Shown here one piece after another: positions 3,801 through 9,675 of a stretch of 64,000 nt of DNA. Location of the stretch: the UHGV virus genome UHGV-0128973; one strand, given 5' to 3'. Position 1 is the stretch's first letter. Every line of letters starts with the position of its first letter. The translations under genes were made by a program, and so were the position numbers. Source of the DNA: a virus. The notes below the pieces were generated by a model that did no database searches, was not told where the DNA came from, and saw only the letters and a program-made list of their open reading frames with translations.

Positions 3801-4698
3801 GCACTGGAAAAACATTACTATTTATAAACTTTCTCGTGAAGCGGATCTGACCGACTTAGAAGATAAAAAGAAAATGATCCTTTTCACGCCATGCGGTAGT
3901 CAGGATATGGCCAAGTTCGGTTTTGTATCTCCATTTGGTGATAATTCCGAAGTTATCGCTATGCATGGAAATGGTTTTATCCTTGTTGAAGCAAAGCGCG
4001 AAACAAAAATCCTTCCCCCGCCGGTTATCCAGCGAGCTATTCAAGAAAAAATTGAAAAACTCGAGCAAGAACAAGCGCGTAAACTGAAGAAAACAGAGAA
4101 GGACTCCCTGAAAGACGAAGTTCTGCATTCTCTTCTGCCACGGGCGTTTTCAAAGTTTTCTGTTATCCAGGCGATCTACGACGGTTCAACTAAACGTATC
4201 TATATCAATGCCAGCGCGCGGCAGGCAGAGGATATGCTCGCGCTTATGCGTAAATCTCTGGGTTCTCTTCCTGTTGTTCCCCTAAGTGTTGAAAATCCCA
4301 TTGAATTAACGCTGACCGACTGGGTACGTGATGGTAGTGCTCCACAGGGATTTCAAATGGGGGATGCGGCAGAACTTAAGGCAGTGCTTGAGGATGGCGG
4401 TATTGCCCGAGTGAAAAAGCAGGATTTGGGAAGCGATGAAATTTCCACACACCTGGAAGCTGGCAAGCTCGTTACTAAGTTGGCACTCGACTGGCAGAAC
4501 CGCATTAAATTTACACTGGACCATAACTTCAGCCTTACCAGCGTCAAATTTGCGGATGAATTGCTTGAGCAGAACTCTGATATTGATAGTGAAGATGTTG
4601 CGCAGCGACTGGACGCAGATTTCTTCCTGTTGACCAGTGAAATTTCGTGCCTGGTTGATGCTCTGGTAAATGCCCTTGGTGGAGAGGCTAAGCAGTGA
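3793..4698 (+). CDS. hrdC: RdgC-like recombination-associated protein
   Basis: [16 protein letters not shown]...[15 protein letters not shown] closely parallels E. coli RdgC N-terminus; ~301 aa from internal Met of ORF 3679..4698. Confidence 0.8.
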
Positions 4699-6959
4699 AA
4701 GAGCTGTGCTATGGATCTGTTTGCAGTGGAATTGAAGCCGCGAGTATTGCCTGGGAACCGTTGGGTATGCGTCCGGCGTGGTTTGCTGAAATCGAGCCTT
4801 TTCCATCTGCCGTTCTTGCGCACCGCTGGCCCCATGTCGCCAACCTTGGCGACATGACAAAACTTGCCAAAAAAGTCCTGGCTGGGGAAATCGAATCCCC
4901 TGATGTGCTCGTCGGGGGTACGCCTTGTCAGGCATTCAGTATCGCGGGCTTACGTGGTGGGCTTGATGATGAACGCGGCGCGCTAACTTTGAAGTATGTG
5001 GAGCTTGCAAATGCAATTGACGACAAACGGTCTGAGTCCTTCCTCAAACCGACAGTTATCGTCTGGGAAAATGTCCCAGGAGTCCTGTCATCGGCAGATA
5101 ACGCCTTCGGATGTTTCCTTGCCGGATTGGCTGGAGAAGATGCGCCATTTGAACCAGGTGATCGACCTGAATCAGGAAAAAGTAACGCGTTCTGGCGGTG
5201 GGATGGCAAAACCGGTTGCCATGCTCCAAAGTGGCCGCAGTGTGGTTGTATTTATGGACCGCAGCGAAAGGTGGCCTGGAGAATCCTTGATGCCCAATAC
5301 TTCGGAGTGGCACAACGACGCCGACGCGTGTTTGTTGTCGCAAGTGCTCGAACAGACCTCGATCCCGCAACGGTACTTTTTGAGTTCGAAGGCGTGCGCC
5401 GGAATATTGCGCCGAGCCGAAAAAAGAAGGAAATCGCTTCCGCCATTATTGCAAATGGCGCTGCAATCAGTGGCGAAAGCCTAAATCCATGCCTACACGC
5501 TGACATGCCACCCGGTATGAAATCGACGAAAGCCGTAAACGCTTTCAGGATGGCGGCATTTGGGGAATATATTGACGATGAAACCGCATCGACAGTAAAG
5601 GCAAGAGATTTTAAAGATGCCACTGACCTTGCCGTTTTTAGCAGCACAGGAGCAGGTTTTTGGTCAGAAGGGCATGGTACATTGCGGGCACGTGAGCAAG
5701 AAAGCCATGAGCATCTTGTTACATTGGCTTTTCCTGAGCGTATGAGCGGTACACAACATGCTGCAACTAAGAATACTTCACCATCTCTAATGGCTAAAAA
5801 TCCAACAGCTGTATGCTATGAAGTAAGAAACGCAGAAGTAGCTGTCCGCCGTCTTACCCCTGTCGAATGTGAAAGGCTGCAAGGTTTTCCTGATGGGCAT
5901 ACGTTGATCCCGACGGAAAAGCGTAAAAAAGTTAATTCAGATGAACTGGCATATCTTCGCAATCACTATCCAGATTTAAGCGAAGAAGAGGCCGCGATGC
6001 TTGCAGCTGACGGACCGCGTTACAAAGCGATCGGCAATAGTATGGCAATACCAGTAATGTGCTGGATTGGCGATCGGATTACTAAGGCCGTATGTCGGCA
6101 GAAAGAAGGAAGTGAAACAAAAGAGCGAAAAGTTAAACCAGCGGCAGAATTCGAACGGTCCATATTCAAATGGGCTGGTGGAAAATTTGGTGTTCTGGAA
6201 CAAATCTTTCGCTATTTGCCAGAAGGGAAGCGCCTGATTGAACCTTTCGTTGGTGGCGGAGCTGTCTTCATGAATGCCGGATACCAGGAAAATCTGCTAA
6301 ATGATGTGAATGCTGACCTGATTAACTTTTACAAGACTCTGCAACGCGAGGCGCATTCACTTATCACTCTGGCACATCGTTTCTTCCAGGACTACAACAC
6401 GCAGGAAGGATACCTGGCAGTACGGAATGCGTTTAACAAACAAGTCTATGATGATTTACATCGCGCAGCGGCGTTTTTGTTCCTGAACCGACATTGTTTT
6501 AACGGATTGACGCGTTACAACCAAGCCGGTGAGTTCAATGTCGGTTATGGGAAGTATAAAACTCCGTATTTCCCATTGCAGGAGATGGAAGCCTTCCTTG
6601 GTGCGGAAGGGCGTTCTGAGTTTGTATGTGGTGATTTTGCTGCGGTGATTGAAGCTGCCGGAGAAGGAGATGTCATCTTTTGCGATCCGCCGTATGAACC
6701 GCTCCCAAATACAGAGGGATTCACGAACTATTCCGGTCATGACTTTAAGTTTGAAGAGCAAAAACGCCTGGTGTCTCTGTTGACGGATGCTCATCGCCGA
6801 GGTGCAAAGGTTCTCATTACTAACAGTGGCGCGCCAAACATCAGAGAACTTTATCAGGACAGTGGCTTCAGAGTGGAACCTCTTTTTGCCAGACGTTCTG
6901 TGTCTTGTAAGGGGGACACTCGAGGTGTTGCTCATGACGTTATAGCAATATTGCTCTAA
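4695..6959 (+). CDS. dmt: Bifunctional DNA methyltransferase Dmt (N-terminal C5-cytosine MTase-like, C-terminal Dam-like N6-adenine MTase)
   Basis: 754 aa; [11 protein letters not shown] and ENV motifs (C5-MTase) then FKWAGGK and DPPY motifs (Dam-type); GTG start with RBS GGAGAGG. Confidence 0.9.
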
Positions 6960-6967
6960 TAAATTTA
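6951..6967 (+). promoter_or_regulatory. C1 operator (perfect ATTGCTCTAATAAATTT) overlapping the dmt stop codon
   Basis: Exact 17-bp consensus read in sequence. Confidence 0.65.
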
Positions 6968-7143
6968 TTAGTGTAATATCGCCTCAATGAATCGTGATTT
7001 ATAGAGCGATTTAGCTGTTAGCCGCGACAGGCGCGGCGGCAAGTATGGCGGGGTAGTGACTCCTTCCCCCTCATGACGCCGAGTTGCCAGGTTGACCATA
7101 CGCCTAAGTGGCAACACCGAAGTGCGTTACGAGCTTCCAGTTT

Positions 7144-7169
7144 GCCCATCTTCGGGTGGGCGTTTTTTT
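7144..7169 (+). terminator. Rho-independent terminator downstream of dmt
   Basis: GCCCA-loop-TGGGC hairpin followed by GTTTTTTT. Confidence 0.6.
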
Positions 7170-7634
7170 CAGGGTTTTCGTCATGGTTAGCGACTTTGCG
7201 GCGGTTTAGAAACTGACCATTAAAGTAAATGCAAACGATGATCTGATGATGGTAGCGGCCTAAGAAGCCAGACGCCACGGGGTATGAGTCGTCCCCCGTC
7301 AAAAAATCGACCGCAGAGTGTCCCCGTCTGTGTATTAGGGAACGGGGAGGCACAACAGGTAAGGGCGCTGGTGTGATTAACCAGATGAACGAGAAGGGGC
7401 CATCTGTTGGTCAGCGTCCTTTCCTGTTGCGTCTTCTTTTCAGCGTAACAGCGGTGCTTAACAGCACTTTGGGTACAGTTCCACGAATTTACGGGTATAT
7501 CCCGTCATGCTGAAAGCGCTAATCACGCTGGAAGCCAGGGTTATGCATCCCCTGTTACCGAATTGCAGCCAGGGCGCGGTGCGCCGAAAAGCATACGGAG
7601 GTGGAAGCCCTCGCCGGAGACGTACCCGGCAAGT

Positions 7635-7709
7635 GATGGTGTAGCTCAGCGGTAGAGCAGTTGGCTGTTAACCAACTGGTCGGTGGTTCGAATCCACCCA
7701 CCATCGCCA
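7635..7709 (+). tRNA. tRNA-Asn (anticodon GUU)
   Basis: Cloverleaf folded by eye: acceptor GATGGTG/CACCATC, anticodon loop CTGTTAA, T-arm GGTGG-TTCGAAT-CCACC, encoded CCA. Confidence 0.85.
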
Positions 7710-7714
7710 ATTTA

Positions 7715-7801
7715 GGGGAGTTAGTCCGTAGGGGTAGCGGGGTAGACTGTAAATCTACTGTCATTGCGACTCGGGTGGTTCGACTCCATCACTCCCCACC
7801 A
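7715..7801 (+). tRNA. tRNA-Tyr-like (anticodon GUA, long variable arm); possibly degenerate
   Basis: Acceptor GGGGAGT/ACTCCCC, anticodon arm GTAGA-CTGTAAA-TCTAC and variable arm resemble E. coli tRNA-Tyr; D-arm irregular. Confidence 0.45.
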
Positions 7802-7805
7802 AATT

Positions 7806-7881
7806 GCCGGTTTAGCTCAGTTGGTAGAGCAGTCGCTTTGTAAGCGAATGGTCAGCGGTTCGATCCCGTTAACCGGCACCA
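7806..7881 (+). tRNA. tRNA-Thr (anticodon UGU)
   Basis: Acceptor GCCGGTT/AACCGGC, anticodon loop TTTGTAA, T-loop TTCGATC, encoded CCA. Confidence 0.8.
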
Positions 7882-8476
7882 ACACAACAGGTAAGAGCAT
7901 TTGTAGAGTTCGACTCTCTACCGTGGGCTTTTTCCCGCGATGCGAGCCATAAATGCTCTTACCGTTGTGATGAAGTGCAGCTCTTAGAAGCAACCAGAAG
8001 ATAAGCATCTGGCTTCACAACATAAACCGCAGGAACGACCAATAAACGGTAGTCCGTATGGAGAACACCCCGTTGAGGAAGAGGCCTGGCCGGAACCGTA
8101 ACCGGCACTACAACGTTGAGAACACTGGCGTAACGGGGTCATATCCCAATCTACGAATAAATGTTGCGTTGCAGCGTGACAACCAGTGTTCTCAACATTG
8201 TGGTGAATGCACAGGCTGATGTGCCGCAACTACAGTAGTGCGCGCTTTGCGGGGCTTGCTACAACCCTGTGTCGGAGTTCAGCACCGACCATCACAGTTT
8301 GATTCTCTGGCATGAGCATAACGCTGAAATAAGTCCAGCCTGGTGCGGCCCGATCACCCGCCGTTAGCTCCACGAAACGGAGCACGTAACAGGTAAGAGC
8401 ATTCTCCTGTAACGGGTTCATATCCCAATCTACAGGTCCACCAGGAATGCTCTTTCCGTTGCGGTGAATGCGGCTA
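7882..8476 (+). repeat. Three imperfect copies of a ~95-105 nt hairpin element (7882-7975, 8105-8215, 8385-8476) carrying tRNA-like fragments
   Basis: Shared AACAGGTAAGAGCAT starts, cores AACGGGKTCATATCCCAATCTAC, ends GTGRTGAATGC; long inverted repeats; T-arm-like GTAGAG-TTCGACT-CTCTAC in copy 1. Confidence 0.55.
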
Positions 8477-8613
8477 AGCGCACGCGGGGAAATGGTTATA
8501 TCAGTCCATTCATTTCTCCTTGTTTCCCCGTCCACGGTGGATAACCAGCCAAAGGACACCGGGAGGCACCCGGCACCGCAACCTTATTTCCCAACCAGTA
8601 ATGAGGTTAATAA

Positions 8614-9039
8614 ATGCTCGGCATTCTCAAAAAGAAATTCCGCAAAGCGGCTGGCGGAGTCAAGAAGATGGAAAACCGTGATGCGGTGGAAGCGACTGTC
8701 TGGGGCGCATATTCCATTGCATACTCTGACGGCACCTGCGATGCGAAAGAAATTGCAGTATTGGAAAAAACCATTGCAGCACTTCCTGCCTTTGCGCCGT
8801 TCTCCGGTGAAATTGCCCAGATGAGCGCCAATATTCGCGCTCAATATGAAGCCTCGCCGCGCCGAGCGAATGCCCAGGCTTTACGTGAACTGGCTGACGT
8901 GTCTGGAACTAATGATGCGGTAGATGTTCTGTGCCTATGCATTGATATTGCTGACCAGGATGGCATTGGGGCAGAAGAGCAGGAGCAATTGAAGAAAATT
9001 GCCCAGGCTCTTCAATTGCCACTGGAACAGTATATCTGA
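8614..9039 (+). CDS. TerB-like (tellurite-resistance domain) protein
   Basis: 141-aa ORF with TerB-type helical signature; true start may be internal (MENRDAVEA). Confidence 0.5.
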   Translation: MLGILKKKFRKAAGGVKKMENRDAVEATVWGAYSIAYSDGTCDAKEIAVLEKTIAALPAFAPFSGEIAQMSANIRAQYEASPRRANAQALRELADVSGTNDAVDVLCLCIDIADQDGIGAEEQEQLKKIAQALQLPLEQYI

Positions 9040-9202
9040 TGGTTATAAAAGCACGTCTAATTCTGGCTTTGGTTTTTCTCGTGCTATCTGTGCTGGTGGA
9101 TTTCACCAGCACAATCCTGTCGGTTTTATCCGACGGGGCGTTGGTAGCAGTAGCTGTAACATTGGTATGGCCGATATTAAAAACAGCTTCTAAGGAACAG
9201 TG

Positions 9203-9310
9203 ATGGGCTTCTGGGATTTTGCTGACAAGCATCCAATTGTTCTCGTTGTCATTGCTGGCATAGTTGTAGGCGGTATTGCTGGCGTCATAGAAGCACTCAG
9301 GAAACAGTAA
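9203..9310 (+). CDS. Small hydrophobic peptide (35 aa, single TM)
   Basis: ATG preceded by RBS AAGGAA; MGFWDFADKHPIVLVVIAGIVVGGIAGVIEALRKQ; below ORF-track length cutoff. Confidence 0.35.
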   Translation: MGFWDFADKHPIVLVVIAGIVVGGIAGVIEALRKQ

Positions 9311-9313
9311 TCC

Positions 9314-9389
9314 GGCCCTTTAGCTCAGTGGTTAGAGCTGGCGACTCATAATCGCACGGTCACCAGTTCAAGTCCGGTAGGGGCCACCA
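9314..9389 (+). tRNA. tRNA-Ile (anticodon CAU, lysidine-type) / tRNA-Met-like
   Basis: Near-identical in arrangement to E. coli tRNA-Ile2 as remembered: GGCCCTTTAGCTCAGTGGTTAGAGC..CTCATAA..TTCAAGT..AGGGGCCACCA. Confidence 0.8.
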
Positions 9390-9675
9390 TATTTGGTTGT
9401 AACACGGCGTCTGGCACATGCGTCGTTAGCGGTCTGGTGACGTTAAAAGGGGGGAACCTTGCCCCTAGCTCAGGCAACGAACCAGGTAGCCGGAATGTGC
9501 AAGCCACCGTTTGTTGTTTCTCGGGTAAAGGGATTCACCATCCTGGCGATTCGGTGTGACAGCCGGGAAGAGTCCGGCGCATTAATCCTGATTTTCTGGT
9601 GATGACTCATATCGTTAGGAGTGATTTGAGTATGCCGATTATATCTGACATTCAGCACGCCTGGGTGGAGTGCTA

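Follow-up and report, generated by a model that had tools for sequence, protein, structure and literature searches.

A probably intact phage-type tRNA-Tyr gene between tRNA-Asn and tRNA-Thr in a P1-like phage-plasmid

The stretch of DNA analyzed here (64,000 nt of the virus genome UHGV-0128973, hereafter the window) is a P1-like (Punavirus) phage-plasmid. ARAGORN calls four tRNA genes in it, Asn(gtt), Tyr(gta), Thr(tgt) and Met/Ile2(cat), all of which score above the gathering score of the Rfam tRNA family RF00005. The 760 nt upstream of the tRNA block are 96% identical to P1 and include the C1 operator and the Pban promoters (Table 1). Because this upstream sequence matches the operator/promoter region of P1, the tRNA genes are placed in the C1-controlled leader of the ban operon. 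Between Pban, which is C1-controlled, and the tRNA genes, the counterpart of the P1 dicF-like region closes with a strong terminator-like hairpin (7143-7162) and a run of seven Ts (to 7169). On the other side of the leader, the helicase ORF matches the place of the gene annotated as ‘DNA primase/helicase’ in phage Ro157c2YLVW and of the ban operon in the P1 annotation. A consensus promoter scan of positions 6800-9600 returned no sigma-70-like site; since it also missed the annotated Pban, it says nothing on transcription.

Table 1. Positions of the tRNA genes, the parts of tRNA-Tyr and the neighboring ban-leader features in the window
Feature	Position	Strand	Evidence or detail
Inverted repeat I2	6945-6982		
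Bivalent C1 operator Obanab (Op72ab), overlapping the P1ban/P2ban promoters	6950..6977	.	Identical to annotated P1 features
Counterpart of the P1 ‘dicF-like region’	7074..7175	+	Alignment to P1 annotation, terminator scan
tRNA-Asn(GUU), 75 nt, first of module	7635..7709	+	ARAGORN; Rfam 75.5 bits
Spacer, Asn to Tyr	7710-7714		AUUUA, 5 nt
tRNA-Tyr(GUA), 87 nt with encoded CCA	7715..7801	+	ARAGORN, Rfam, MFE fold, family covariation, annotated identical sequence
Acceptor stem	7715-7721 / 7791-7797		GGGGAGU/ACUCCCC, perfect 7 bp
Connector	7722-7725		UAGU
D stem	7726-7729 / 7737-7740		CCGU/GCGG
D loop	7730-7736		AGGGGUA
N26	7741		
Anticodon stem	7742-7746 / 7754-7758		GUAGA/UCUAC, perfect 5 bp
Anticodon	7749-7751		GTA; loop CUGUAAA, 7 nt
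Variable arm	7759-7773		Stem GUC 7760-7762 / GAC 7768-7770
T arm	7774-7790		GGUGG-UUCGACU-CCAUC
Discriminator	7798		A
Encoded CCA	7799-7801		
Spacer, Tyr to Thr	7802-7805		AAUU, 4 nt
tRNA-Thr(UGU), third of module	7806..7881	+	ARAGORN; Rfam 67.2 bits
tRNA with anticodon CAU, counterpart of P1 trnI (tRNA-Ile2)	9314..9389	+	ARAGORN; Rfam 59.1 bits; 98.7% identical to P1 trnI
ban-like replicative helicase ORF, 456 aa	9670..11040	+	ORF list; position

A sequence-only reading of this DNA had proposed a class-II tRNA gene with anticodon GUA between tRNA-Asn and tRNA-Thr, and both tRNA finders agree with it. ARAGORN calls tRNA-Tyr(gta) on the plus strand at 7715-7801, and the RF00005 match at 7715-7798 is full-length (model positions 1-71) and above the gathering threshold (41.9 bits against 29, E = 1.7e-5 in the 64-kb window); the poor score or pseudogene call that the reading had named as grounds for doubting the gene did not materialize. 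The Rfam score is nevertheless the lowest among the four tRNAs of the window (41.9 versus 59-75 bits) and lies below the 53.4 bits of E. coli tyrU. The ARAGORN call by itself is only suggestive, because the program also made two calls when run on 30 dinucleotide-shuffled versions of the window, or ∼0.07 per shuffled window. Taken together, the Rfam E-value, the place between two tRNA genes and the more than 1500 homologous phage records put the gene well beyond chance.

The anatomy of the gene is that of a tRNA-Tyr. Every element listed in the earlier reading (the 7-bp acceptor stem, the anticodon stem with its CTGTAAA loop, the T arm and the encoded CCA) is found in the sequence. All 24 base pairs are unbroken, and the MFE fold of 7715-7801 is a cloverleaf, with an MFE z-score of -0.67 that carries no information either way. 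As in bacterial-type tRNA-Tyr, GUA is presented by a 7-nt anticodon loop (C-U-G-U-A-A-A) in which position 33 is U and position 37 a purine. The long variable arm had been likened to that of E. coli tRNA-Tyr, and rightly so: it reads GUC-AUUGC-GAC, a 3-bp stem with a 5-nt loop, compared with GUC-ACA-GAC in tyrU. The identity set of TyrRS comprises the discriminator A73, the G1-C72 pair and a long variable arm, all of which are present in the window gene. We consider it very likely that 7715-7801 is a real, intact tRNA-Tyr gene.

Comparison with the host genes highlights both the conserved core and one distinctive region. The window gene is 71% identical to E. coli tyrU, and shares with tyrT, tyrV and tyrU the CUGUAAA loop, G1-C72, A73, the GGUUCGA T loop and a long variable arm whose stem is GUC/GAC. 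The variable loops differ (AUUGC in the window, ACA in tyrU); that of E. coli tyrT is AUC. The main departure is in the D-arm. In E. coli tRNA-Tyr the connector spans 2 nt, the D stem 3 bp and the D loop 11 nt; the corresponding lengths in the window gene are 4 nt, 4 bp and 7 nt. Over positions 8-26 as a whole, the window gene and tyrU are of equal length. The canonical two-nucleotide connector (positions 8-9) is thus replaced by the four nucleotides UAGU ahead of the D stem, and in place of the E. coli-type class-II D-arm, with its 3-bp stem and long loop, the gene has a 4-bp stem, a 7-nt loop and two extra connector nucleotides.

To assess this D-arm we used the structure proposed by Rfam and the MFE fold, together with an alignment of 25 distinct tRNA-Tyr sequences from several phage families (T4-like, T5-like, rV5-like and FelixO1-like phages were sampled). 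Standard pairing is seen in 99.2% of the cells of this alignment, and 15 of the 24 pairs show changes on both sides. None of 500 shuffles reaches the observed values, and slid controls are 46-58% paired. The family therefore has the full cloverleaf, with a 7-bp acceptor stem, a 5-bp anticodon stem, a 7-nt loop and a 5-bp T stem, complete with compensatory changes. The lineage D-arm consists of a 4-nt connector (U8 A9 N N), the 4-bp stem CCGU/GCGG, a 7-8-nt loop of the form A-R-N-(N)-GGUA and then N26. Its stem is paired in all 25 sequences (100%), and its one CG↔UA covariation comes from four T5-like members. Without exception, the 25 sequences have U8, A14, G18 G19, A73, a UUCGA T loop and one and the same anticodon loop; G1-C72, A73, GUA and the GUC/GAC variable stem vary little or not at all. 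The nucleotides expected to make tertiary contacts in a tRNA (U8, A14, G18 G19 and T54 Psi55 C56 with A58) are in place as well, in the form of U8, the first D-loop A, the D-loop GG and the UUCGA T loop. The D stem that ARAGORN itself draws (2-nt connector and two pairs, G10-C and U11.G) reaches only 33% pairing in the family alignment and was rejected in favor of the shifted 4-bp stem. By eye, a fifth D-stem pair, joining N26 to the final nucleotide of the connector, is available to some members (U.G, U-A) and not to others (C/U, A/G, U/U).

The odd D-arm, which the sequence-only reading had called irregular, is indeed unusual, but it is a conserved architectural trait of the phage tRNA-Tyr lineage and not a sign of decay, since the same architecture pairs and covaries across the family. 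The 4-nt connector is probably the cause of the low RF00005 scores in this lineage: RB18 scores 30.2 bits, and T6, IrisVonRoten and heid fall below the gathering threshold. General tRNA models thus under-score the lineage, such that copies can be overlooked or labelled as pseudogenes. Some of the relatives in phage records are unannotated and others are labelled tRNA-Val or tRNA-OTHER.

Judged by its sequence, the window gene is a member of a widespread lineage of phage tRNA-Tyr genes, with relatives at ≥77% identity in more than 1500 phage records. Members occur in T4-like (RB18, T6), rV5-like (LL12, CR3), T5-like (IrisVonRoten, 8sent1748) and FelixO1-like (heid) phages, as well as in Klebsiella, Pectobacterium and Enterococcus phages. 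The 87-nt genes of T6 and RB18 are 90% and 92% identical to the window copy, respectively, and share with it the acceptor stem, the D-arm core UA NN CCGU AGRGGUA GCGG, the anticodon loop and the T loop. They also have the same variable arm, GUCAUUGCGAC, which is the T6 type that Septu cleaves. The few substitutions lie in the connector, N26 and the anticodon stem. The genetic settings are different: T6 and RB18 are lytic T-even phages (Tequatrovirus) that carry the gene in a tRNA-rich region next to segB and a Met tRNA gene, whereas the window element is a temperate P1-like phage-plasmid in which the neighbors are Asn and Thr, and it lacks a segB homing endonuclease that would amplify tRNA-Tyr. 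The T5-like members IrisVonRoten and 8sent1748 have the 4-nt connector and the variable arm of the window gene, and a compensatory D-stem pair of their own. The exact D-arm-plus-anticodon pattern, which is a narrow one, matched four times in 185,579 species-representative genomes (three of the matches on metagenome-assembled contigs), a weak indication that cells seldom carry the lineage. In one Lachnospiraceae MAG contig from the gut (2612-2793 of the stretch compared), a canonical-type and a phage-type tRNA-Tyr are adjacent, 5 nt apart.

Several relatives have been studied experimentally, in the context of anti-phage defence. The phages concerned are T6, T5, SP15 and KpP_HS106 (PMC13096335, PMC11555353). 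The T6 tRNA-Tyr is seen on Northern blots and is cut by Septu EcB88 at C48, in the variable arm; its overexpression or amplification rescues T6 from Septu, and T4, without a tRNA-Tyr gene, cannot escape (PMC13096335). The T5 tRNA-Tyr is reported to resist cleavage by virtue of a distinctive variable loop (PMC13096335), unlike the cleavable, T6-type arm of the window gene. When phage tRNA-Tyr is overexpressed, host tRNA-Tyr is also partly protected from degradation, and a decoy role is raised in the same paper (PMC13096335). Likewise, the tRNA-Tyr of T5 and SP15 rescues these phages from retron-Eco7, a system in which the effector PtuAB depletes the tRNA-Tyr of the host; changes to the anticodon or stem of SP15 tRNA-Tyr abolish this rescue, and the SP15 and T5 tRNAs are under a very strong dedicated promoter (PMC11555353). 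Direct cleavage of tRNA-Tyr by PtuAB is disputed (PMC12819146). The T5-like members of the lineage, for which T5 and SP15 offer the example of a phage-borne tRNA-Tyr that restores infection under host tRNA-Tyr depletion, are 80-83% identical to the window gene.

Among P1-like elements the gene is an addition to the reference. The P1 genome NC_005856 has trnA (Asn), trnT (Thr) and trnI, in keeping with the three tRNAs with which the sequence-only reading had credited P1 and with a recent survey table (PMC13015707). At the position of the window gene, where a comparison with P1 had been proposed, trnA and trnT are 2 nt apart and tRNA-Tyr is absent. The suggestion of an ‘extra or degenerate gene’ therefore stands in its first part only; the intact helices, the covarying D-arm and an active T6 relative speak against degeneracy. 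The novelty that the reading implied is also lost. The Punavirus vB_EcoM-Ro157c2YLVW (MH160767) carries an identical 87-nt sequence annotated as tRNA-Tyr(gta) in the same Asn-Tyr-Thr layout, and PGAP labels nearly all E. coli plasmid copies tRNA-Tyr, on hundreds of RefSeq plasmids. The gene is thus real but ordinary, of a type common among phages and already publicly annotated. In the literature, we found no publication on Ro157c2YLVW, a search on P1 tRNAs returned only unrelated mitochondrial papers, and a survey of P1-like plasmids leaves tRNAs unmentioned.

Copies at 95-100% identity are present on plasmids of 269 of the 5426 complete E. coli genomes, and none of these 5426 genomes has a chromosomal copy of the phage-type tRNA-Tyr. 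The P1-type Asn/Thr junction occurs in 480 of the same genomes, so that the Tyr gene is found in roughly one third of E. coli plasmids with the cluster and is missing from about two thirds (269 versus 480 genomes). In PLSDB, the full three-gene version is covered in 237 of the 995 plasmids matching the cluster. The exact 87-nt sequence recurs in no fewer than 80 records of complete E. coli plasmids, and the differences among plasmid alleles fall mostly at unpaired positions. A mismatch is present in 5 of 49 IMG/VR copies. One allele, on the ETEC plasmid NZ_LR882992.1 (301-387 of the stretch compared), is decayed: two of its pairs are disrupted, by G3>A and by a G>U change in the D stem, and it has no PGAP annotation. 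Evidently, some plasmids lack the gene outright and others can lose it through mutation. Because about two thirds of the clusters do without it and at least one allele has decayed, tRNA-Tyr is dispensable. From its sequence and distribution, it appears to be functional in form yet dispensable, an accessory polymorphism. P1-like phage-plasmids thus differ in their tRNA cargo, and a fourth tRNA beyond the P1 reference matters for annotation.

The neighbors of the gene suggest how it came to be there. The P1 and window loci occupy the same place between dmt/Pban and ban, with 96% identity upstream and 98.7% in the CAU tRNA, whereas Asn and Thr are different alleles (tRNA-Asn and tRNA-Thr of the window are each 89.5% identical to their P1 counterparts, trnT in the latter case) and the first ∼100 nt downstream diverge. 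An unrelated 112-kb E. coli plasmid, pSCU-306-2 (3921-4300 of the stretch compared), carries the Asn-Tyr-Thr block at 97.6% identity to window positions 7635-7985, including a tRNA-Asn that is 100% identical. Its upstream flanks are unrelated to the window, with a DNA ligase, a glutaredoxin and an extra tRNA-Ser nearby, but it also keeps the outer stem of the adjacent hairpin and the sequence 3′ of that hairpin. N4-like phages (Enquatrovirus), whose tRNA-Asn is 96% identical to that of the window, have a cluster of the same layout: an Asn gene of 75 nt and a Thr gene of 76 nt enclose a class-II tRNA gene, from which they are set off by spacers of 5 nt and 4 nt, respectively. There, however, the middle gene is a 90-nt tRNA-Ser(UGA) with a canonical class-II D-arm rather than Tyr.

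The junctions themselves (CCAATTTA... on one side and ...CCAAATT, followed by G, on the other) are compatible with insertion and with deletion. Exchange of a module is favored over a simple local event, because the layout is common to N4-like phages and pSCU-306-2. Asn-Tyr-Thr thus looks like a mobile tRNA module that would have been exchanged by recombination. Overall, it is probable that the window carries an intact, functional tRNA-Tyr of the phage lineage in the middle of a mobile module that replaces the Asn-Thr pair of P1 in some phage-plasmids. In the N4-like phage vB_EcoP_3HA13 (801-1050 of the stretch compared), the cluster gives the impression that its central position can accept different class-II tRNAs. 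Some P1-like plasmids (e.g., pPSS-10_3, NZ_AP027688.1, 250-326 of the stretch compared) have a tRNA-Arg(UCU) in place of tRNA-Asn. This gene is chimeric, with the acceptor stem and T arm of the Asn gene and another D loop and anticodon arm, an apparent swap of the anticodon arm.

How the gene might work can be outlined from the P1 annotation and the sequence features above. It would be co-transcribed with its neighbors in the C1-repressed ban leader, and hence mainly during lytic growth, a route that is drawn only from the P1 annotation. Host RNase E and RNase P would release the tRNA from the polycistronic precursor at the A/U-rich 5-nt and 4-nt spacers, and CCA addition would be unneeded, as CCA is encoded. 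With G1-C72, A73, GUA and a long variable arm, the product is predicted to be charged by the host TyrRS and to decode UAU and UAC. Its presence would raise or buffer the Tyr-tRNA pool during phage growth.

What the phage-plasmid would gain from this is less clear-cut, and two explanations compete. More Tyr-tRNA may simply speed lytic phage translation, as has been proposed for the Asn, Thr and Ile2 tRNAs of P1, with no link to defence. The codons of the module’s partners are indeed enriched in the window ORFs (ACA 12.1 and AUA 11.5 per thousand), which fits the Thr(UGU) and Ile2 tRNAs, and some window ORFs are rich in Tyr (up to 53 per thousand). Tyr codons as a whole, however, amount to 30.1 per thousand, and we found no Tyr codon enrichment in the 40 long ORFs of the window from which this value comes; this is about the level typical of E. 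coli. Both Tyr codons are read by one isoacceptor, which the host encodes three times. There is thus no rare codon to offset, and rare-codon compensation does not explain the Tyr gene. Most P1-like elements, moreover, manage without it. On these grounds plain translational supply, the classical view of phage tRNAs (summarized in PMC13096335 and PMC13015707), is possible but somewhat doubtful for tRNA-Tyr. Because Tyr codons are not enriched and a single isoacceptor reads them, the likeliest selective gain would instead be insurance against defences that deplete tRNA-Tyr (Septu, retron-Eco7 PtuAB), as for T6 and T5/SP15. The gene would then act by dosage and not by cleavage resistance, since its variable arm is the cleavable T6 arm. 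By analogy with these relatives, we tentatively put an anti-depletion role ahead of plain supply, at a likelihood somewhat short of even; the anti-defence role is extrapolated here from lytic phages to a temperate one. If the gene does buffer tRNA-Tyr depletion, the counter-defence known from lytic T5 and T6 would extend to temperate phage-plasmids that spread resistance genes, an incremental advance. We further conjecture that Asn-Tyr-Thr is a counter-defence cassette traded horizontally among temperate P1-like and SSU5-like phage-plasmids, in which Tyr would be kept under C1 control against depletion of the Septu/retron-Eco7 type and the peculiar D-arm, with its 4-nt connector and class-I-like D stem, would be an adaptation that alters recognition by tRNA nucleases or modification enzymes. 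This broader scenario is rather unlikely as a whole; if true, tRNA cargo would be a polymorphic arms-race trait of phage-plasmids too, beyond large lytic phages.

The remaining explanations question the tRNA itself. A degenerate relic of a lytic-phage tRNA, from which usable tRNA is no longer made, would account for the non-canonical D-arm (with a 2-bp D stem in the ARAGORN fold), the lowest Rfam score of the window’s four tRNAs, the MFE z-score of only -0.67 and the existence of decayed alleles (NZ_LR882992.1 and the mismatched IMG/VR copies). We nevertheless judge a pseudogene very unlikely: 24 of 24 base pairs are intact in the window copy, the D-arm is common to T4-like, T5-like, rV5-like and FelixO1-like phages and covaries among them, the exact sequence is kept in the plasmid records counted above, and the 90%-identical T6 tRNA, which scores lower still (below the Rfam threshold), is functional (PMC13096335). 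The locus could alternatively serve without decoding, either as a decoy for a tRNA-Tyr nuclease or, as DNA, as a recombination hot spot. Partial sparing of host tRNA-Tyr upon overexpression of the phage tRNA (PMC13096335) agrees with the former and exchange of the module between unrelated elements with the latter. However, the full set of identity and tertiary-contact nucleotides is conserved, and loss of SP15 rescue upon anticodon or stem change points to decoding (PMC11555353), which leaves a non-decoding role highly improbable. Finally, the D-arm geometry unlike that of E. coli tRNA-Tyr and an overall identity of only 71% might mean that the tRNA is charged by LeuRS or SerRS, or by no synthetase. 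Such altered identity is the least probable of the alternatives, given that A73, G1-C72, G34 U35 A36 and the tyrU-like GUC/GAC stem are present and near-invariant in the family and that relatives work in decoding-dependent rescue (PMC13096335, PMC11555353).

The leader around the tRNA genes contains further structured elements. Four related long hairpins lie at 7345-7436, 7880-7978, 8101-8212 and 8382-8473, with outer stems of ∼20-25 bp that carry the motif ACAAC-A-GGUAAG...CUUACC-GUUGUG and MFE values of -36 to -49 kcal/mol. None matches an Rfam family. The hairpin immediately downstream of tRNA-Thr (z = -7.0) varies in its interior, with at least four unrelated versions across P1, Ro157c2YLVW, the window and pSCU-306-2, and its outer stem is kept by compensatory changes (GAGCA/UGCUC versus GGGUA/UACCC). 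Two of the interiors contain T-arm-like hairpins. The hairpins may be processing sites, for RNase III or another enzyme, or small RNAs. The annotated P1 ORFs plp and upl overlie these hairpins on the opposite strand, and in P1 the plp ORF (‘putative lipoprotein’) overlaps tRNA-Thr. In the window, the plp counterpart (7984-8229, minus strand) begins at the corresponding place but is shortened to 81 aa and has its 3′ part replaced by the variable hairpin interior, raising doubt about plp as a real gene. At 8460-8580, a search of 2.8 kb gave a match to the STnc100 sRNA family below threshold (37.8 bits, where the gathering score is 47; E = 5e-6), and this STnc100-like match is just upstream of the TerB-like tciA ORF (8614-9039).
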